Below, piece after piece: positions 19,042 through 61,805 of a stretch of 64,000 nt of DNA. The DNA is from Eledone cirrhosa (Eukaryota), in the NCBI GenBank assembly GCA_964016885.1, contig OZ024741.1, positions 191,022,001 to 191,086,000 of the forward strand. The letters run 5' to 3'. The translations under genes and the position numbers were made by a program. Below the pieces are notes generated by a model. That model saw only the letters and a list, made by a program, of their open reading frames with translations. It made no database searches and was not told where the DNA came from. Position 1 is the stretch's first letter, and every line of letters starts with the position of its first letter.

Positions 19042-19224
19042 CCTAACTGTCTCTACATCAGCTATATATTATTGTCTAACTTCACAACACATGGTGCTGT
19101 CTATCAGTCAGTCTGTCTGTCTATCAGTCTGTCTGTCTGTCTGTCTGTCTACCTAACTGTCTCTACATCAGCTATATATTATTGTCTAACTTCACAACAC
19201 ACTACAATGATGTTATCTATATCT

Positions 19225-20085
19225 GTCTGTATGTATGTCTAACATCAGACAGATACCCATTGAGGCCCCACTTCACAACAACACACAACAATGATGTTGT
19301 CTGACTGCTAGACTATCTGTATGCCGTCTGTCTATATGTATGTCTAACATCAGACAGATACCCATTGAGGCCCCACTTCACAACAACACACAACAGTGAT
19401 GTTGTCTGACTGCTAGTCTATCTGTATGCCGTCTGTCTATATGTATGTCTAACATCAGACAGATACCCATTGAGGCCCCACTTCACAACAACACACAACA
19501 GTGATGTTGTCTGACTGCTAGACTATCTGTATGCCGTCTGTCTATATGTATGTCTAACATCAGACAGATACCCATTGAGGCCCCACTTCACAACAACACA
19601 CAACAATGATGTTGTCTGACTGCTAGACTATCTGTATGCTGTCTGTCTATATGTATGTCTAACATCAGACAGATACCCATTGAGGCCCCACTTCACAACA
19701 ACACACAACAATGATGTTGTCTGACTGCTAGTCTATCTGTATGCCGTCTGTCTATATGTATGTCTAACATCAGACAGATACCCATTGAGGCCCCACTTCA
19801 CAACAACACACAACAGTGATGTTGTCTGACTGCTAGACTATCTGTATGCCGTCTGTCTATATGTATGTCTAACATCAGACAGATACCCATTGAGGCCCCA
19901 CTTCACAACAACACACAACAGTGATGTTGTCTGACTGCTAGACTATCTGTATGCCGTCTGTCTATATGTATGTCTAACATCAGACAGATACCCATTGAGG
20001 CCCCACTTCACAACAACACACAACAGTGATGTTGTCTGACTGCTAGTCTATCTGTATGCCGTCTGTCTGTATGTATGTCTAACAT
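19225..20085. repeat. 105-bp tandem repeat, about 8 near-identical copies
   Basis: AACATCAGACAGATACCC recurs at 19241, 19346, 19451 and onward to 19976. Confidence 0.95.
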
Positions 20086-24825: not shown

Positions 24826-25193
24826 GCTGGGATGGTGACAGGGAGGTCCTCAGTTTGTAGGTTTTACATCAGAGTGCCCTTCTCCTAGCCTCTGCCTCAA
24901 AAACCTTCCTCGGAGGCACATCAGTAGGTTTAGGGACATGGCACAATGTGCCTTGTCATGAAGATCATTTAACTCATAGGTGGAACCCTGACAAGTATTA
25001 TCACGCCAGGCCAGATCCCCAGAACTCTCGAACTGGAACCTCACCATCAGATGCAGTTTAGTGTCTTTCCCAGGACAATATTCCTGATGATTTCTAAAGA
25101 ATGAAACAGTTCTAGTCCTGTAGAATCTCATCTATATTAAAACTATATATATATATATAAAAAAGAAAATTTCGCTCTACATGGATGAATACA

Positions 25194-34812: not shown

Positions 34813-36831
34813 TGACGTTTGAAATACTGCTGGTTACTGTTTTATGGAAATACTTGGAAAGGGAGAGAGTTCTACAGGTTTTTTTTTTTTATATCCAGGT
34901 CTATCTATAGGGTTTACTGTGGAATATAGGGAGATTTAAGCAGAGAACTATAGTATGAGTGACAATGAGCTGTGGTGTGACAATTAATTATGTGAAAATG
35001 GAGGTAGATGAAAATGTAGTTAGATAAAGACAGTTGTGATAAAACAGGGAAATATATAAGAAATCACTTAAATCCCTGATTCATCTTCATCACCATTATT
35101 TTATGCCAATTTTCCATGCTGGCATAGGTTGGCTAGGTTGTCACAGTTTGAGACTATATGGAGCCCAAAACCACATCTTACCTGTGCATTCCATATTTAG
35201 CATACTTTTTATGGATGCCCTTCTTAATGCCTACCACTTTACAGTGTGTACTGGGTGCATTTTATCATAATATTAGCACTAAGGAGGTTGTCATCTTTGA
35301 CATCACTAAAGCACCCTCTCTGCCCAATGCTGTCTCTGATAAAGTGTGCTGGCTGCATTTTATTTTCTGTAAAATCTAACTCCTAAAATGTCTGAACAAT
35401 TCATATAAAAATATCTTTTTCAATTCACAATAGCTTAAAAATGTTTGGAAAATTATAAAAGTAATTAAGAAAAAAAAATGAATTTCCTTTTTTGGGAGAT
35501 TTTAAAACTTAATTTTTCATAATATATGCAAGTCACTTTTATAATGGAACATTAAACTTAAAGATTAAACCAAGGAGTTTTGTTTAATATTCATGGCTTT
35601 GTCTGAAAAACTTAGTGGTTTATTGGATTTCTTAATTAGATTTACATATGTTTAAGTTTAGTTCAGAAGACATAGTTGTACTTGTGGAATAAAAAAATTG
35701 CTGTTAAACCTAGGACAGTTTTAAAGGATCTAGAATTTTAATTAATCCAACTATGTTTTTGCTTGGTCAACAGCAATAATTTTTATGGCAGGGGTTTTTG
35801 TGTTCAAATTTTCCCTTGCACTTAGAGGTTGATTAATGAAGATTTATTGATAGAAATGTTAATTAAGGGAAATATAACATTACATACAACACTGTATCAC
35901 TTTTAAAATGTTGTATTTAAAACCATTGCCACACTTTGTTAAAGTTATCAAGTGGTCTCTGCAGTTTGTTCACTTTCATTCACTAATTAATAATAATTGT
36001 TTCTACTTTTTGGCACAAGGCCAGCAATTACCCAGTGCATTACTGGTACTTTATTTTATCGACCCCGTAAGGATGAAAGGCAAAGTTAACCTCGGTGGGT
36101 TTCAAATTAATTAATAATAATGATTTTAAAGCAAAGGTAAAGTTCTAGAATTTTAATGTTCAATATTGAATATCTCAGAATTAGTGCACTAAAGGAGTAG
36201 AATGTACCAGGTGGGACTTCTAGAAAGTTCACATAACTGACCCTAAAAATCAAAAGAATTGAGTATTTTGATAATTTAAATTGACTTCAGAAATTAAGTG
36301 AAATTCAAGTCATGATGAAAAAGTACTTTAGCAGGCTCTAATAACTAAATTCTGTAGAAAACAAAAATTAATAAAGTAGTAATTAATATAAATGACATGT
36401 TTCTCTATTATCAAAATTAGATTTTCATTTTGTAAGTATGTTTAATTTAAGTTTTCATTTCTAAGACAGAATATTCCTTAAAAATCAGTTCATTTTGAAG
36501 TGGTGGAAACATTCCTTAGAGCAGTTGTAATCAACACTTAATGGTGTATTAAGGTTCCATAGTTATACACGAGTCAAGATGGGTGTATGTGAAAGTGTGG
36601 GCGTTTGTGAATATATATACACATATTCTATACACACAAACATATATACACACAGGCACTCTTACACACACATGTGGATGTATGTAACTCTTGGCGTGAG
36701 TGGGTGTTTCTGAATACACACACACACACACATATATATACACAGAGACACTCATACTCACACATGTGGATGTATGTGACTCTTGGTGTGTGTGGGTGTT
36801 TCTGAATATATATATATATATAAGTTGTAAT

Positions 36832-36945
36832 AAAATGAAAACGAAATTTCATTTCTCACTCTTAGTACGGCATTTACTTAAATGTAAGTATGTATGTATA
36901 CGTACATACATATATGTATATGTATACAGACGTACAGTAGCATGC

Positions 36946-36976
<31 letters not shown>

Positions 36977-37172
36977 CAGGTACACATACATATATGTACG
37001 CATCAGTTTAGCGGACGCTTATTATAGCGCCCGCTTTGTTCGTTTGTAAACAAACTGAACAGCCTGAATTTATGCCGCACGGTGTTAAGGCAACCACGTC
37101 ACCTTTTTGTTCAACACTGACACAGGAACGATGTACTAGTTTCAAGCTTGTTAGCTATCATCAGCACCGTAT
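36832..37172 (-). mobile_element. Hammerhead-bearing repeat family H1
   Basis: Reverse-complement homolog of 59717-60350. Confidence 0.75.
37129..37169 (-). ncRNA. Minimal type I hammerhead ribozyme
   Basis: CGGTG-CTGATGA-T-AGCT(AACA)AGCT-T-GAAA-CTAG-TA^CATCG; stem I pairs; palindromic stem III ACTAGT. Confidence 0.7.
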
Positions 37173-41996: not shown

Positions 41997-42027
<31 letters not shown>

Positions 42028-42029
42028 GG

Positions 42030-42232
42030 AATAGAATGAAACGAAATTTCATTTCTCACTCTTAGTACGGCACTTACTTAAATGTAAGTATGTATGTATG
42101 TATACGTACATACATATATGTATACAGACATACAGTAGTATGTATATATATAAATACATGCACACATATATATATGCACGTATCGGTTTACCAAACATTT
42201 ATTATAATGCTCGGTTTGTTTGTTTGTAAACA
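42030..42232 (-). mobile_element. Family H1 fragment
   Basis: ATGAAACGAAATTTCATTTCTCACTCTTAGTACGG marker. Confidence 0.7.
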
Positions 42233-43070: not shown

Positions 43071-43127
<57 letters not shown>

Positions 43128-43132
<5 letters not shown>

Positions 43133-43558
43133 TAAGTATGTATACGTACATACATATATGTATACAGACGTACAGTAGTATGTATATACTTACATACATA
43201 CACATATATATATGTACGTATGGGTTTACCGAACATTTATTATAATGTTCGATTTGTTTGTAAACAAACAGCCCGAATTAAGCCGTACAGTGTTCGGGAA
43301 TCATCGTTGCCCTTTTGTTCAACACTGACAAAGGTTGCCGAACATTGTACGGCTTAATTCGGGCTGTTTGTTTGCAAACAAACCGAACATAATAATAAAT
43401 GTTCGGTAAACCCATACGTACATATATATATGTGTGCATGTATGTATGTATATACATACCACTGTATGTCTATATACATATATGTATGTACGTATACATA
43501 CTTATATTTAGGTATCAGCCGTACTAAGAGTGAGAAATGAAATTTCATTTTTTCCATT
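43128..43558. mobile_element. Family H1 in fold-back arrangement
   Basis: Arms of ~165 bp (43128-43296 / 43338-43510) with CCGAATTAAGCCGTACA / TGTACGGCTTAATTCGG. Confidence 0.75.
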
Positions 43559-46500
43559 TATATATATATATATATAAAATATATTATTTTAGAAGTGGCA
43601 CTATCATAGAATGGTTCATCATATATAACCATCATCATTTACCAACTGCTTTTTCCTGCTGGCATGTGTATATATATAAAATAACAACAAAAACCATTTT
43701 AAATTCATTCTTCCCACCCTCACACAATTAGCTTTGCAAGTTGAGGGGAATAGTCAAGCGTGACATGTGGTCCCATTTGAGGCAAGATGTTACAGCCACA
43801 TGCCCTTCCTGGCACCAACCCTTTTAGTTGCTTCCTCCTACATGCAGGGACACAGTGTACTTGTTCTAAACCAGATACAGACATATGTATGTATATATTT
43901 ATGCAGGTATGCATATGTGTGTGCAAGGGTGGGTGGGTAAGTCTAAAAGTATTATATATATATGTGTGTATGAATATATATTTCTTATTACTCTTTAAAA
44001 TATCTTTAGAACTTCATTGATTAGTGCTCTTCCTGGGTTTTCTAACCATGAATATCCAATCTCTCTCTCTACATATATATATGTGTGTGTGCATGTGAGT
44101 GTGTGTAAATGCATATGCATATATGTTTGAATGTATATATGTATGTGTGTTAATCAAGAGAGAAAGATAGAGAGAGATTGATTGGTTGTAAATAAAATAT
44201 TCAAATATGACATTCAACTATTGCTAACATATGTTTCTTTAGATCAGTTCTACATGTTCAAACAATGTTTACTAAGTGTCTGAGGAATTTTATTTACTCT
44301 GTATCAAAACAGTTTCTCCAAATGGAACACTAAATCTAACCTATTTGAAATATAAATAAACAAATGTTTTCATCCACCCTTCATCACCCGTGTTTCTGTT
44401 TCTTTAAAGTTCCACTTCCGAACAGATGGCTTCTCTATCACTATTTTTTCACTAATTTTCAATGAATCTTACATTACATTTTAAAAAATTATTATTCAAA
44501 ATTTCTTATCCTATTTATTTATTTGTTTAATATCTTATTAAAATGTTTTAAAAAAAAACATAAGTTTGGTAGGGACAAAAATTTGGGGAATAAAAATTTT
44601 ATCTGAGCTTTTTTTAAAATCTGAACAAACAAAATTTTGGATGAAATGATGATTGATTAATTCTAATAATTTCTTATGTATTGAAATGAAATTATCTCCA
44701 AAATACAGTTATTTAGAGATATTTAATCTTAAGAAACTGGCTATTTGAAATTAGAGTAGGAAAAAGGCTTGTCATTGCCTAAGATGACAGTTTTTCTGGT
44801 GATAAAAACAACCAAATTTCTTTATTGAAATTGTTTTTTTCTTAAAAGCAACATATGTTCATGAAGTATTTCTTAACTAGAATTCACAGAAGTTGTCACA
44901 GTATTTAACCTGTTCTCAACTTAAATGTCAACACTTCCTTCAACACCACCCCACTGATAAATACAGGTATCAGTCATATTTGTTCAGCATTTATCCATAT
45001 GTCAGTCATATTCATAATGAATTGTTATTCATTTAATAAAATTATTATTAATAAAAAAAAGTTAGATATTTTCCTGATAAATAAATAGGTAAACTGGATT
45101 ATTTCTGCACTTAGAGGAGCAATATCCATTCAAGGTATTACCACTAATTTATGGCCAAGATTCAGCTCCATAATTGAAAATCCAGCTAGTGTACCTAGTC
45201 TTTAGTTAAGGATCATGTTCATAACTGAGGATTTACTTTCTATTTCAGCCACATAGTTAGTACTCCTGCTGATTCTATTAGTGTGTATCTAAATATTGAT
45301 TTCTATTTTATGCACAAGGTCAGAACATTTGTAGGGAGGACAAGGCTGATTAAATTAACCCAGTACTCCATTTTACTTTATTTCATCAATCTCAGAAGGA
45401 TGAAAAGCAAAACTGACATTTTTATACACAAACATCAAGTTTGTGTATAAATATTCACAGCCAGAATGTTCATAACTAAGAATTCATAAGTTTAGAACCT
45501 TGCCAGTATCTAAATATTCACAGTTTGTACAACAGTTAATATTTCAACAGACTAAGATATAAATTATTGTCTATTCAGTTGCTTGTCCACTATTCATTTC
45601 ATTCAGCTATTTTGATCTCTAGAAAGAATCTAGCTTCATAGAGATTACCATTGACTTAATGGTATTACACTTTATATTAATAAGTAAGTTAGAAGAACTT
45701 TAAAAATTTGTTCAATGAAGGAGGACCTTATTGGTCGTTATCTTGTTATTTTACCCAATCCCCACTTCAAAACAAGATTAAACTGATGGAGCAGCCAGAA
45801 GCTGGTGCACTGAAGACCAAACTTTGAAATGGTTTTGTTGAATAGGTCAAAGAAAGTACCAACTGGAATCAAGTTTTCTCAAATCCTTTGAACAATTCAG
45901 AGAAGTAATACTTAGTACAGCTTACACACTTATTTTATATTTAAGAATAAACTTCACAGGTATACTTAACAATAATATAGGCCCCTTAAGTATACTCCTT
46001 AGATGTATTGTTCAAAGAATGTGAACAATACAACTGGATGTCTTAGCAATATGGTAAACAGAATGAAAAATTTAAACTTTAAATTATACAATTTACAAGC
46101 ACAACGTAAGATAGAAACTGCCCCTGCGAGTTGAACCACATAACAGTGTTACCAGTTACAGCAAAGTAATAATTATGTATACTATAAAATGTTTGTCTTT
46201 AAATTGTAGTTTGTATATATGAACTTGTAACTCTGGTTGGAGTCATAGTGGTACAGTCATAACATACACGTCTAGCAGAGTTCATCCTGTCTCCAGGTCT
46301 GAACATGAAGGAAAGTAAACAAAATATAGAGAGGAAGTATTGACTCTTGTACTAGACTGGTACTTTTTTTTTTATCAACCTTGAAATGACAAAAGGCTTA
46401 GTTGAGCTTAGTTGGATTTGAACTGAGAGAGCACAGAGAGCTGGAGAAAATACTTCAAAACATTCTATCAGATATTCTAATGACTCTGCCAATTCACCAC

Positions 46501-47644: not shown

Positions 47645-48870
47645 ACCTGGTGGATACTCCTTACTACCTCTGACTAGAGAGATACCCTACCTATCTCTGA
47701 CAACATGGTGGGTATCTTTTTTACCTCTGACAACTAGGTGGGTATCCTTTCTACCTCTGACAACTATCTGGGTATCCTGCTTACCTCTGACAACTAGGTG
47801 GGTATCCTGCCTACCTCTGACAACTAGGTGGGTATCCTTCCTACCTCTGACAACTAGGTGGGTATCCTTCCTACCTCTGACAACTATCTGGGTATCCTGC
47901 CTACCTCTGACAACTAGGTGGGTATCCTGCCTACCTCTGACAACTAGGTGGGTATCCTGCCTACCTCTGACAACTATCTGGGTATCCTTCCTACCTCTGA
48001 CAACTATCTGGGTATCCTGCTTACCTCTGACAACTAGGTGGGTATCCTGCCTACCTCTGACAACTAGGTGGGTATCCTGCCTACCTCTGACAACTAGGTG
48101 GGTATCCTTCCTACCTCTGACAACTAGGTGGGTATCCTTCCTACCTCTGACAACTATCTGGGTATCCTGCCTACCTCTGACAACTATCTGGGTATCCTTC
48201 CTACCTCTGACAACTATCTGGGTATCCTGCTTACCTCTGACAACTAGGTGGGTATCCTGCCTACCTCTGACAACTAGGTGGGTATCCTTCCTACCTCTGA
48301 CAACTAGGTGGGTATCCTGCCTACCTTTGACAACTATGTGGGTATCCTGCCAACCTCTGACAACTAGGTGGGTATCCTGTCTACCTCTAACAACTAGGTG
48401 GGTATCCTGCCTACCTCTGACAACTAGGTGGGTATCCTTCCTACCTCTGACAACTAGGTGGGTATCCTGCCTACCTCTGACAACGAGGTGGGTATCCTGC
48501 CTACCTCTGACAACTATGTGGTTATCCTGCCTACCACTGACAACTGGGTGGGTATCTTTATTACCTCTGACAACTGGGTGGGTATCCTTCCTACCTCTGA
48601 CAACTATGTGGGTATCATGCCTACCTCTGACAACTAGGTGGGTATTCTACCTACCTCTGACAACTATCTGGGTATCCTGCCTACCTCTGACAACTATGTG
48701 GGTATCCTGCCTACCTCTGACAACTGGGTGGGTATCCTACCTACCTCTGACAACTGGGTGGGTATCTTTATTACCTCTGACAACTGGGTGGGTATCCTTG
48801 TTACCTTTGACATCTGATTAGTTACCCACTTCTAACAAATGGGTATAATATCTTTGCTACCTCTAACAAC
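47645..48870. repeat. 30-bp minisatellite, about 38 copies
   Basis: CTACCTCTGACAACTAGGTGGGTATCCTGC in perfect register. Confidence 0.97.
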
Positions 48871-57779: not shown

Positions 57780-59068
57780 CACCGAGCACAGATCTCTGCC
57801 CATGTTTTTTGTGGTCTTCCTCTACTGCGTCTTCCTTCTACTGGCAGTCTTCTCTCCCGCACACTACACAGTTTCTCTTATACACAGTTTCTCTCTCAAC
57901 TCATCTATGTTTGGTCATTCATGCACATTGACATTGGACATCCAATGGAGCATGCTTGCTTCATTTCTCTCCAACCATCACATATCCTCCGCAGTTGCTG
58001 CCCATGTCTCACTATCATGGAGCATTGTGCATCTGACACAGGCATCATATACCCGGCCTTTCGTTCGTAAGGAGAAACTCTTCTTTGTTAACTGAGGAAG
58101 CAGCTCCTTAAACTTCTTCCAACCTGTCCTTATTCTAGATACACCCTCGTCCCTTGCTAATCTGATCACCTAAGTATCGGAAGCTATCAACCACCCGTAT
58201 AGATCCTACTTGCATTTGAAAAATGTGTCTATCACTGTGACTTCTACTGTCAAATTTCCCTGAACATCTACTGCATATGTAGTTTTCCCTACCTGTTAGT
58301 TTGCTTATTATCCCACTACATCTTTTGTGTACCCAAGATTTGCATTGTGTACATTTTATAGAATTTATGCCAAATTCTTTCTACATATCGAACATGGCCA
58401 TTTCCCTGATGGAATCAGAGTTTTATCCTCTTTTCTACTTATCAACACTTTAGTCTTAGCTAGATTCACTCTCAGTCTGCTTGACTCCATTTGTGTTTCC
58501 ATAGCCAGAATTTATTCTCTAGCTCCTCTACTGATTCTGCTATAAGTACCAGATTGTCAGCATAGAGAAGTTCCCATGAGCAGCCAGTCTTAAACTCCTC
58601 TGTCATGGCTTGGAGGACTATAATGAACAAGCGTGGGCTGAGGACCAAACCCTGATGTACTCCTACTTGTATCTGGAATTCCTCACTAAACTCCATTCCT
58701 ACTCTCACTTTACTGACAGCACCCCTGTACATAGCTTTCACTGTCCTCACAAGCCATACCTCTACACCTAGTTTCCTAAGGGACCACCAGATGACAGATT
58801 GGGGTACCCTATCAAACGCCTTCTTTAGGTCATCAAAGGCTAAGTATAGTGGCTTATTCTTCTCTAAGAACCTCTCTTGTAGTTGTCTCACTAAGAAGAG
58901 GGCATCTGTTGTACTTTTCCAAACTGCATCTCATCTAATTTGACCCTTTCTCTAATTAGTTGTGCTTGTATTCTTTCTGCCACTTTCACAACCTGATCCA
59001 TCAGTTTTATGCCCCTATAATTGCTCCTCTTCAGAACACCCCCTCCTCTCCAGAACACCCTCTTTACC

Positions 59069-59070
<2 letters not shown>
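57780..59070 (-). mobile_element. RTE LINE fragment whose 5' part is duplicated in inverted orientation (59167-59346)
   Basis: LKKAFDRVP, HQGLVLSP, LLYADNL, HDSETW. Confidence 0.9.
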
Positions 59071-59100
<30 letters not shown>

Positions 59101-59349
59101 TATATATATTTATATATATAAATATATATATATTTATATATATTTATATATATATCTATCTATATATAGGTAAAGGGGGTGTTCTGGAGAGGAGGGGGTG
59201 TTCTGGAGAGGAGCAATTATAGGGGCATAAAACTGATGGATCAGGTTGTGAAAGTGGCAGAAAGAATACAAGCACAACTAATTAGAGAAAGGGTCAAATT
59301 AGATGAGATGCAGTTTGGAAAAGTACAACAGATGCCCTATTCTTAGGAA

Positions 59350-59636
59350 ACAACACAGACCGGGTGATGTGTTGTTTCCTTGAGCAAGACACTTTATTTC
59401 ACATTGCTCCAGTTTACTCAGCTGTAGAAATGAGATGATAGAGACTGGGGTCCCTATCATTACACTGCAAAGTGGTTGTGGAGGTGCCACGGCAAAAAAA
59501 AGCACCCAGCACTCACTGTAAATGAGGTTGGTGTTAGGAAGGGCATCCAGCTGTAGAAATCAAGCCAGAATCAGTTCCCGTCCCACCCTTGTAAGCAGGG
59601 AAAAAGCGGACGTAAAAATGAAATGAAAAATGTAAA

Positions 59637-59640
<4 letters not shown>
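59350..59640 (+). mobile_element. SINE family A, 5'-truncated
   Basis: Matches 28455-28710. Confidence 0.85.
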
Positions 59641-59692
<52 letters not shown>

Positions 59693-59716
59693 TTATATAT
59701 ATATATATATATATAT

Positions 59717-60350
59717 AAACGGAAAAAATGAAACGAAATTTCATTTCTCACTCTTAGTACGGCTTAATTCGGTATCTTTGTTTACAAACACACCGAGCAT
59801 TATAATAAATGTTTGGTGAATCCATACGTACATATATATATGTGTGCATGTATGTATATATCTATACATACTACTGTACGTCTGTATACATATATGTATG
59901 TACGTATACATACTTATATTTAAGTAACAGCCGTACTAAGAGTGAGAAATGAAATTTCGTTTCATTTTTTCCGTTTATCGTTTTCGGTGTGCCCGGCCGA
60001 TTAACTCACTCGATATGCAAATTAGGCTGCTCAGCCGTTAATATGCATAAGGAAAGTATATACTTTCAGACGTTCAATCATCTGGCAGGAAGGTATGCGT
60101 TGCTGACGATAGCTAATAAGCTTGAAACTAGTACAGCGTTCCTTTGTCAGTGTTGAACAAATGAGCAACGATGGTTGCTAGACACTGTACGGCTTAATTC
60201 GGGATGTTTGTTTACAAACACACCGAACATTATAATAAATGTTCGGTGAATCCATACGTACATATATATATGTGTGCATGTATGTATATACATATATACA
60301 TACTACTGTACGTCTGTATACATATATATATGTACGTATACATACTTATA
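59717..60350 (+). mobile_element. Family H1: about 1.4 tandem units of ~430 bp plus a short inverted end
   Basis: GTACGGCTTAATTCGG at 59757 and 60187; inverted repeat 59717-59764 / 59929-59976. Confidence 0.75.
60098..60138 (+). ncRNA. Minimal type I hammerhead ribozyme
   Basis: CGTTG-CTGACGA-T-AGCT(AATA)AGCT-T-GAAA-CTAG-TA^CAGCG. Confidence 0.72.
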
Positions 60351-61091
60351 TATATATATATATATATATAAATATATATATAGTAAAAGAATGAAGAATA
60401 ACAGGGTCGGCTGTATAATAGGAAGTTATCAAATGCAAAAGCCTACACAAAGGGAATGTCTCCTTGTGGACTCTGTAATATGGAGCTACTCCATATTCTA
60501 TAATATAACAAACTGCTGCTCGATAGCAAGCTCGAGTGGACAATTTTATGTAGGCATAAAGCCGTCACTAAATTCTCTAACTACAAACTCAGACGAGCAT
60601 GATTAGATCCAGCAATCTCACTAACCATTCTAAACCATCCAGATTTAAAATGTCTACTATACTGATGCCAACAAACCAACTTTACACATCCTCACTATAA
60701 TTAACTGTCAGTTGACCAATCAGACATTAAATCAATCGACAGTCCCTCAGCTTTTTTATAGACACACCCTCTCATACACAGCACTACCACCAATCTTCAC
60801 CTCCATTAGGATAATACTTTTCAAAATACCCCAACCTTAATCACCTGTCTATTATCATTATATTTTTATTTTATATTCTGCCACTTCATCTATGTAACCC
60901 ACCTCACACCACTGTATTTGAATGTCCCCACTACCCCATCATCCCATTTTATTACACTAACCAGTATCTCCTATTCATATCATCCCTTCATACCACTTCC
61001 CTCACTTTCTTCATGTTATTATTATTATTGTCATTACTATTTAATGCCTCTATCCCCTCATCACTGCAACCATTACTACTACTACTACTAC

Positions 61092-61142
<51 letters not shown>

Positions 61143-61805
61143 CTTATTATTATTATCTTATTATTATTAGGTGGATTGGCAGTATCGGGAGAGGGTCGGA
61201 TGCCATGCTTTGCAGCAAAGAGTTACGGCCCGAGGTTAACTTTGCCTTTCATCCTTACGGGATCGATAAAATAAAGTACCAGTAATACACTGGGATAATT
61301 GCTGGCCTTGTGCCAAAAGTAGAAACAATTATTATTGTTTACATTCATGTTATTCTCCCACGTGTCTATAAATACTAGCGCACTGTATCATGTACACAGA
61401 TCAGTATTCTGATGATTTGGTCAGGTATCGACTGTAATTAAGGTCAAGTGATGTGACTCTAATGATCAGCAATTTTTAGACACACTGGACTAATGAAACA
61501 ATTGTTAATACTTTAAATAACCCCTATTGTAGAACCAACCACGTTATTCTTCATTCTTTTACTATTATTACTCCAAGAACTGCTTGCCTAGGAACTTTCT
61601 TAAACCGGCCACCCGACTAAGGAAACTTCTTGTTGAGTCAAACAACACCATATGTTAAAACTATCCTTGATACAGAGTACTCACAACATCTAGCTGGATT
61701 ACCTTAAATGATATCTTATTATCCTATATATATATATATAGTGATAGAACACTGGAATGTAATATCTGTAGTGGTAGAGCACTCAGTCCATGGGACAAGT
61801 TAGGT

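Follow-up and report, generated by a model that had tools for sequence, protein, structure and literature searches.

A high-copy hammerhead retrozyme family in the octopod Eledone cirrhosa, probably mobilised by a Penelope-like element

The window, a stretch of 64,000 nucleotides from Eledone cirrhosa, contains at 59715-60351 an insertion built from a 430-bp unit that has no open reading frame (ORF) and carries a type I hammerhead ribozyme. We conclude, with a probability of about 0.8, that this element is a dispersed copy of a high-copy non-LTR retrozyme, a non-autonomous hammerhead element mobilised by a Penelope-like element (PLE); the PLE enzyme that copies the unit most likely belongs to the Hydra clade. 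The family is real, young and very abundant. An earlier reading made from the letters of the DNA had proposed a non-autonomous ribozyme retroelement family at this place, and that proposal is borne out by the ORF-less unit, arrays of up to about 12 units, more than 24,000 ribozyme cores in the genome, ends of PLE type and the lack of an attached ORF at the ends examined. Statements credited below to PMC4209133, PMC7229834, PMC8557442 and PMC11167929 refer to the parts of these papers covered here.

The direct repeat that defines the unit (59757-59922 and 60187-60354, 94.6% identity over 166-168 bp, period 430) starts where the sequence-only reading had placed it, at 59757 and 60187, but that reading overlooked the 50-bp inverted arm at 59715-59764 and the PLE insertion footprint (Table 1). 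Unit positions are counted from the predicted cleavage site, 60134 being position 1. The sense arm ends 3' at a site that we call A (..ACTTATAT) and the inverted arm at a second site, B (..CCGTTTAT), each on (TA)n, and the window copy is accordingly an A+B head-to-head insertion. In its junction the two halves correspond to opposite strands of a predicted RNA stem, in which compensatory changes are seen. Only one hammerhead is present in this copy, so neither a unit-length RNA nor a circle can be released from it, and it is likely to be a dead end. Three other pieces, noted earlier at 36832, 42030 and 43128 beside (TA)n, do belong to the family; overlooked was that the first of them is a sister-subfamily copy with a complete second hammerhead. 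The octamer ATGCAAAT occurs at 60015-60022, is kept in 10 of 11 aligned units and also lies inside a predicted stem. Newt satellite 2 has an snRNA-type promoter with an octamer.

Table 1. Positions of the insertion, its parts and flanks, and of the other family copies in the window
Feature	Position	Strand	Remarks
Sister-subfamily copy	36820-37170	-	Complete hammerhead, core starts at 37164; ends at site B on (TA)n
Single arm, 5'-truncated	42022-42223	-	Ends at site B on (TA)n
Two-armed head-to-head copy	43127-43561	.	Minus arm to site A, plus arm to site B, both on (TA)n
Unrelated high-copy repeat, left of (TA)n	59356-59640		
(TA)n target, left flank	59639-59717	.	3' of the unrelated high-copy repeat
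Inverted arm, 50 bp	59715-59764	-	Unit positions 226-275; 100% identical to 59929-59978
Head-to-head junction, 8-nt overlap	59757-59764	.	
Sense arm, 1.38 units	59757-60351	+	Full 430-bp unit 59757-60186, then partial repeat
59-nt 'tail' between end sites A and B	59920-59978	+	A after 59919, B after 59978
Type I hammerhead, predicted	60090-60144	+	Core 60103-60133
(TA)n target, right flank	60352-60382	.	

Other repeats also lie in the window. The high-copy repeat to the left of the (TA)n target is presumably a SINE. Directly to the right, 60383-60660 contains a C-terminal GIY-YIG fragment of old Hydra type, and a short counterpart in inverted orientation lies at 61523-61565; the fragment comes from an older, unrelated family (76-88% to its relatives; 756 first-look candidates). 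Around a (TA)n centre, 58982-59255 forms a long, nearly perfect inverted repeat that derives from a LINE RT fragment and draws spurious miRNA matches in Rfam. Two minisatellites lie at 19222-20085 (period 105, 8.2 copies, 98%) and 47686-48812 (period 30, 37.6 copies, 91%). Just outside the window, an ORF has 74% identity to proteins of Octopus vulgaris and Argonauta hians, as befits an octopod host.

The ribozyme that had been recognised by its CUGACGA/GAAA core, GUA triplet and palindromic stem III ACUAGU was found as claimed, with predicted cleavage after 60133. CUGACGA begins at 60103 and is followed by a stem II consisting of a U-U and 4 bp (AGCU/AGCU) and then by GAAA; stem III comprises 2 bp within the palindrome, the predicted cut falls between 60133 and 60134, and stem I has 6 bp with an extension. 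The canonical metazoan type I hammerhead has a helix I of 6 bp, a helix II of 4 bp and a helix III of 2 bp with a palindromic loop, and min-HHR (Cervera and de la Pena 2014) denotes forms without helix III and loop 3 (PMC4209133). By this definition the window hammerhead has the canonical layout and is not a min-HHR, so that the word 'minimal', first used for it, has to be given up. The canonical layout predicts action as a dimer, and the U-U at the base of stem II together with the 2-bp stem III would be expected to make cleavage of the monomer weak. A search with Hammerhead_1, suggested as a check on the sequence-only reading, came back empty: neither this nor any other Rfam covariance model gave a hammerhead match, whether the complete window was searched (E<=1) or the segment 60000-60200 (E<=10).

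The core, stem II and stem III are invariant among subfamilies of the unit that are about 18-20% apart, and stem I covaries; the core is conserved, whereas a core not conserved across copies had been named as grounds for abandoning the reading. Over 12 distinct sequences the 29 pairs of the hammerhead region were 98.3% paired, and two of them had changed on both sides. Covariation in the hammerhead was 0.114, as against 0.077 in shuffled and at most 0.034 in slid controls, figures to be read with the facts that the shuffle test ignores the relatedness of the sequences and that the signal comes from two or three subfamily splits, and thus from few independent events. The predicted minimum free energy (MFE) structure is an alternative fold of the hammerhead core. 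The family's hammerhead is predicted to be self-cutting.

Other hammerheads occur beside this one. One further type, the third, has a longer stem III and was seen at 25084 (+) in the window and at loci L043 and L090, the latter carrying it on both strands. The second hammerhead repeat family has a 310-bp unit and is represented by five identical units in L126:5640-7501 and by L059; its copies too have two arms on (TA)n, its hammerhead combines a U-U at stem II with the palindromic stem III ACGCGU, and it was compared with the 430-bp family at the level of the motif.

When the window unit was folded as a circle, its MFE was -142.4 kcal/mol compared with -94.7 +/- 5.4 kcal/mol for 25 shuffles, a difference that TA palindromes inflate, and three other subfamilies gave similar results. 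The predicted circle is branched and about 68% paired, and 9 of 121 pairs over the whole unit show two-sided changes, again from the two or three subfamily splits and thus few independent events. Site A sits in the loop of a 5-6 bp hairpin that is kept in all subfamilies. A circRNA of about 430 nt from the family is plausible. No signature of A-to-I editing was seen in the 30 loci nearest to the window copy (A>G 0.0053, T>C 0.0059 per site).

Genome-wide, an exact search for the 33-nt ribozyme core returned 24,191 matches in 3.0 Gb and none for a reversed-pattern control, so that the motif is not there by chance; the count is a lower bound. Family copies are dispersed over many chromosomes. 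Full units cut between hammerheads (45 cases) measured either 420-441 bp, comprising the window type and a 426-bp type, or 456-516 bp, giving an overall range of 420-516 bp. In arrays every unit carries one hammerhead, and the tandem unit is short, as is characteristic of non-LTR retrozymes. Arrays reach about 12 units, some with identical units: among young arrays, the units of L123 and L125 are identical and those of L124 (C1) and L081 (C17) differ by 0.1%. The copies nearest to the window copy diverge by 2.8% from their majority. Contig ends near 60134-60135 in runs of unrecorded kind were discarded as a signal, being explained by subfamily branching; in such runs the unit was also seen at low depth in organisms B and C.

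Part of the array growth is local. The ABAB unit pattern of L122 fits a 2-unit duplication after insertion better than an origin from a dimeric circle, and the latter was rejected. The units of L031 differ by 7%; in its array of about 12 units (L031:1404-6731), the same mutated stem III and cleavage site recur in units 1, 2, 3, 5 and 7, and mutated units partly alternate with intact ones. Long arrays are therefore not pure products of reverse transcription. The duplication in L122, the alternating variants in L031 and the TA-rich palindromic interior of the unit would also suit a satellite or minisatellite that spreads at the DNA level, by unequal crossover, fold-back or extrachromosomal circles, and in which the hammerhead is vestigial. 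This model holds for secondary array growth, but as an account of dispersal it is contradicted by the polarity of the copies (3' ends are fixed, 5' ends are scattered, and A pairs strictly with B), by their distribution over many chromosomes, by covariation that tolerates G-U and so points to RNA, and by an empty-site comparison at L011 that reveals a clean insertion; as an explanation of the family we regard it as very unlikely. An apparent allele specific to terminal repeats (unit position 94 reads A in 17 of 50 passes through terminal repeats and in none of 28 through internal ones) was considered as proof of a linear master. Genome-wide, this position is A in 163 cases and G in 7,544, and is internal in 7 of 30 A loci versus 13 of 30 G loci; the signal was rejected as ascertainment bias because the query itself carried A.

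Fixed and paired ends, a (TA)n target and read-through at the cleavage site provide insertion-level support for a PLE enzyme. A tail, which is one-sided, partial tandems and an inverted 5' copy are hallmarks of PLEs, and those of the Hydra clade target (TA)n (PMC8557442); the tail is bounded by two internal sites at which RT starts (PMC11167929). The main set consists of 106 loci selected with short exact patterns. Its 3' ends cluster at unit position 216 (site A) and at unit position 275 (site B), or at the corresponding positions of other subfamilies. Of 145 distinct 3' ends, A accounts for 43, B for 49 and other positions for 53, so that 92 of 145 ends fall at A or B, where about 4% were expected; 13 of the 53 others lie at one position in an internal TA run and are possibly alignment breaks. 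Sequence like (TA)n follows immediately after 39 of the 43 A ends and 44 of the 49 B ends (83/92). Among 41 head-to-head pairs, 18 were A+B, none A+A, none B+B, and 23 had at least one other end (p=3.8e-6); every informative pair (18/18) thus joins A to B. The 30 loci nearest to the window copy, which overlap the main set by four insertions, gave A+B in 12 of 21 pairs and again neither A+A nor B+B. Partial tandems, 5' truncation and inverted 5'-truncated copies are all present in the family.

The 5' starts are scattered and compatible with a uniform distribution (n=141, KS p=0.086). None of 46 arms with a defined 5' end, a set chosen by a pattern downstream of the cleavage site, stops at that site; 36 read through it and 10 stop short. 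Together, these observations indicate that the template is likely to be a circle or an uncut multimer. In young insertions one variant is common to both arms (L121, p=0.006; L126; L129, where there is no variable site outside the TA tract), and at L121 the arms overlap for several units. Several junctions, including that in the window, have overlaps of 4-20 nt at predicted stems. At L011, a non-microsatellite site, the insertion replaced about 9 bp and made no TSD; elsewhere the (TA)n flanks hide TSDs, which in non-LTR retrozymes, when present, exceed 4 bp.

Ends on a microsatellite would also be left by a SINE-like passenger of a LINE (RTE, CR1 or Dong-R4) that primes on such repeats. Microsatellite ends are common among SINEs of microsatellite-priming LINEs, and LINE fragments are abundant in the flanks of our insertions. 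Such a passenger does not account for two alternative ends paired across arms or for multi-unit arms, and no 3' end in common with a LINE was seen. L1-type twin priming produces non-overlapping arms, unlike the arms of L121. We therefore consider a LINE passenger very unlikely and retain PLE mobilisation.

The unit itself is non-coding: ATG ORFs in trimers of units from five subfamilies reach at most 51-112 aa, and the array of about 12 units has no ORF. The layout is polar and tandem, without LTRs. The sequence-only reading had allowed that the unit might simply be the LTR of an autonomous Penelope. Among 173 5' ends and 168 3' ends at about 140 loci, no PLE RT/GIY-YIG ORF was attached to the unit, and same-sense PLE-like coding was found near 4 and 6 of them, respectively. 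Five of the six 3' cases are separated from the unit by (TA)n, and one (L152) abuts mid-RT; at the 5' side, L023 has its own inverted arm in between and two cases match only 36 N-terminal residues of the frame of PLE-C (see below). One locus, L011, was evaluated as a PLE-retrozyme chimera or parent and turned out to be an ordinary insertion into the 3' region of another PLE, as 14 empty-site copies show.

It is very improbable, on these results, that the unit is the pLTR (a solo or 5'-truncated end) of a yet unseen autonomous PLE, although it has all the hallmarks of one, namely hammerhead, tail and inverted arm, and although the inspection of about 140 loci against more than 24,000 cores, with genome searches that scored the best 40 DNA matches, leaves room for a rare autonomous parent. 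The hammerhead recurs within 155 nt after site B and closes the 430-bp unit, long arrays are free of ORFs, and the few ends near PLE-like coding include no pLTR-ORF junction among those inspected. Loose contig ends in DNA-like runs are (TA)n at B or subfamily variants, with no common alternative among those listed.

A non-autonomous, PLE-mobilised unit needs a source of enzyme, and at least two young Hydra-type PLE families, PLE-A and PLE-C, co-exist with it in the genome; their clade was assigned by motifs (RWR/RWK, DKT, CxCx5C, CxxC, CxH) compared with PMC8557442. PLE-A has a 713-aa open frame and 31,801 first-look candidates. It also has two ends, about 89 nt apart, on (TA)n, with TA next after 20 of 41 site A and 13 of 26 site B ends. 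PLE-C has a 784-aa open frame and 3,531-bp tandem copies with 0-1 mismatches, and from its sequence it is likely to be active. At L227-L229 (C1:437.198-437.216 Mb) full-length PLE-C lies in at least five head-to-tail copies, those compared differing by 0-1 mismatches, a hint that autonomous PLEs too arrive as multi-unit arrays. Pfam searches with three PLE fragments and a PDB search with PLE-A returned nothing relevant.

Of the features expected under dependence on the Hydra clade, (TA)n targeting and a Hydra PLE in the same genome were found, and a terminal sequence common to a named autonomous family was not. The unit and PLE-A, PLE-B and PLE-C, three of many PLE families seen in the genome, have no sequence in common beyond AT-rich matches of 16-17 nt, so that the partner is assigned by footprint only. 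The pLTR of PLE-A (L085, about 6090-6050, minus strand) has a hammerhead-like core that reads CAGAAGA rather than CUGANGA in 33 of 33 loose-pattern matches, and this very successful PLE family may therefore be without a working canonical ribozyme. In L126 and L020, retrozyme insertions are flanked on both sides by (TA)n and enclosed by two PLE-A pieces that face outward, an arrangement that fits either shared targeting or co-insertion.

From these data we propose the following cycle. Multi-unit arrays would be transcribed, and neighbouring hammerheads would pair via the palindromic stem III and cut, yielding a unit-length RNA, which may then be circularised by a host ligase (step 1). A PLE protein, presumed from the observed footprint, would break (TA)n, and the two DNA ends would prime reverse transcription inside the RNA, one at B and the other at A, 59 nt upstream, both of which end ..TAT (step 2). 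Synthesis, as seen in the DNA product, passes the cleavage site, extends over 0.1 to more than 7 units and stops at scattered positions, which would fit a circle or an uncut multimer as template rather than a cut linear monomer (step 3). The two cDNAs would then join head to head, sometimes through complementarity provided by RNA stems (step 4), and later array growth by local duplication, observed for L122, would complete the picture (step 5). Whether the template is a circle or an uncut linear RNA is close to an even choice. The full joint reading, a currently active viroid-like octopus circRNA that undergoes rolling-circle, double-ended TPRT, with A and B primed by a Hydra PLE dimer at one (TA)n break and the cDNAs joined via RNA stems, is offered tentatively, at somewhat less than even odds.

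The alternative that differs from this cycle in step 1 only is PLE mobilisation without a circle, in which an uncut linear array transcript serves as template and the hammerhead has little or no activity. Read-through of the cleavage site fits it equally well, most arms are shorter than two units (14 of 145 reach at least two), the PAc PLE mainly uses uncut RNA (PMC11167929), and a U-U in stem II reduced cleavage in axolotl HHR_Amex2 (PMC7229834). On the other hand, a silent hammerhead is hard to reconcile with a core, stem II and stem III that do not vary across subfamilies while stem I covaries, fresh arrays hold up to 7.5 near-identical units, and related mussel and axolotl units yield abundant circles (PMC7229834). 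We rate this alternative, too, as a real contender that falls a little short of an even chance.

How animal retrozymes move is stated as open both in PMC7229834 and in a 2026 preprint (10.64898/2026.07.22.740005). With its short, young and abundant RNA template and candidate intact Hydra proteins in the same genome, the octopod family makes the mobility question testable. If the joint reading is true, an obligatory two-primer mechanism would have left the PLE tail and inverted arm as its signature, which could be read in tens of thousands of copies, and the 430-nt RNA would be a minimal substrate for any PLE assay. More than 24,000 predicted ribozyme copies are missed by Rfam, and repeat annotation may label the family as unknown or as a SINE.

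Metazoan non-LTR retrozymes are 170-400 nt long and occur in molluscs and other animals, with mussel units of 350-390 bp, and PLEs have been proposed as their mobilisers (PMC7229834); the tandem unit of the class is of about 150-450 bp, and of up to 972 in the 2026 preprint. Like those in PMC7229834, the octopod family consists of tandem units that are poor in GC, lack an ORF and carry a single type I hammerhead; its predicted circle is highly self-paired, and the U-U at the base of its helix II is also found in axolotl HHR_Amex2. It differs in that its unit, at 420-516 bp, is at or above their range, and in that its copies are mostly of one or two units, two-armed, on (TA)n and with a 59-nt tail, whereas theirs are long TSD-flanked arrays; expression and circles were seen for theirs, and the octopod family is known from DNA alone. 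No cephalopod appears in the parts of PMC7229834 covered here. The sequence-only reading did not recognise the family as described, and this stands for the octopod family, which we did not find in the literature, but not for the retrozyme class (PMC7229834). Outside Repbase, Dfam, subscription papers and the supplements of PMC7229834 and the preprint, our literature search found no cephalopod retrozyme and no tail or two-arm footprint for a retrozyme.

The preprint likewise holds that retrozymes depend on PLEs, on the basis of co-occurrence and pLTR homology in 35 species without molluscs; the octopod basis is instead the insertion footprint, no parent pLTR having been found. It also suggests that arrays arise by local amplification and reports that 8 of 9 Xenopus retrozyme dimers did not cleave; the words 'tail', 'octopus' and 'cephalopod' have 0 occurrences in it, supplements aside. 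A mechanistic parallel is PAc, a Poseidon PLE of Anolis (Frangieh et al. 2024, PMC11167929), in which two internal RT starts bound the tail, the target is AT-rich, both DNA strands are cut and extended, and a hammerhead lies upstream, features that for the octopod unit are read from insertions. PAc is autonomous, and its starts, which are located in an AC-rich stem-loop not homologous to the target, showed no difference between strands in vitro; in the octopod unit, unlike PAc, both sites end TAT, a possible microhomology with (TA)n, and the arms use different sites.

With Hydra-clade PLEs (Craig et al. 2021, PMC8557442), which include Hydra-1_Obim listed for Octopus bimaculoides, the octopod unit has in common (TA)n targeting, a tail, partial tandems and inverted 5' copies; unlike them, it lacks an ORF, homology to PLE-A or PLE-C was not detected, and its core was not found in the part of the PMC8557442 supplement covered here. 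It also resembles MRC1 and other non-autonomous Chlamys elements (PMC8557442), PLE derivatives with pLTRs and multicopy head-to-tail insertions, but these, unlike the octopod unit, have 3' ends in common with autonomous partners and mostly lack hammerheads. The retrozyme class and its dependence on PLEs are already in print, and to these the octopod family adds evidence at the level of individual insertions.
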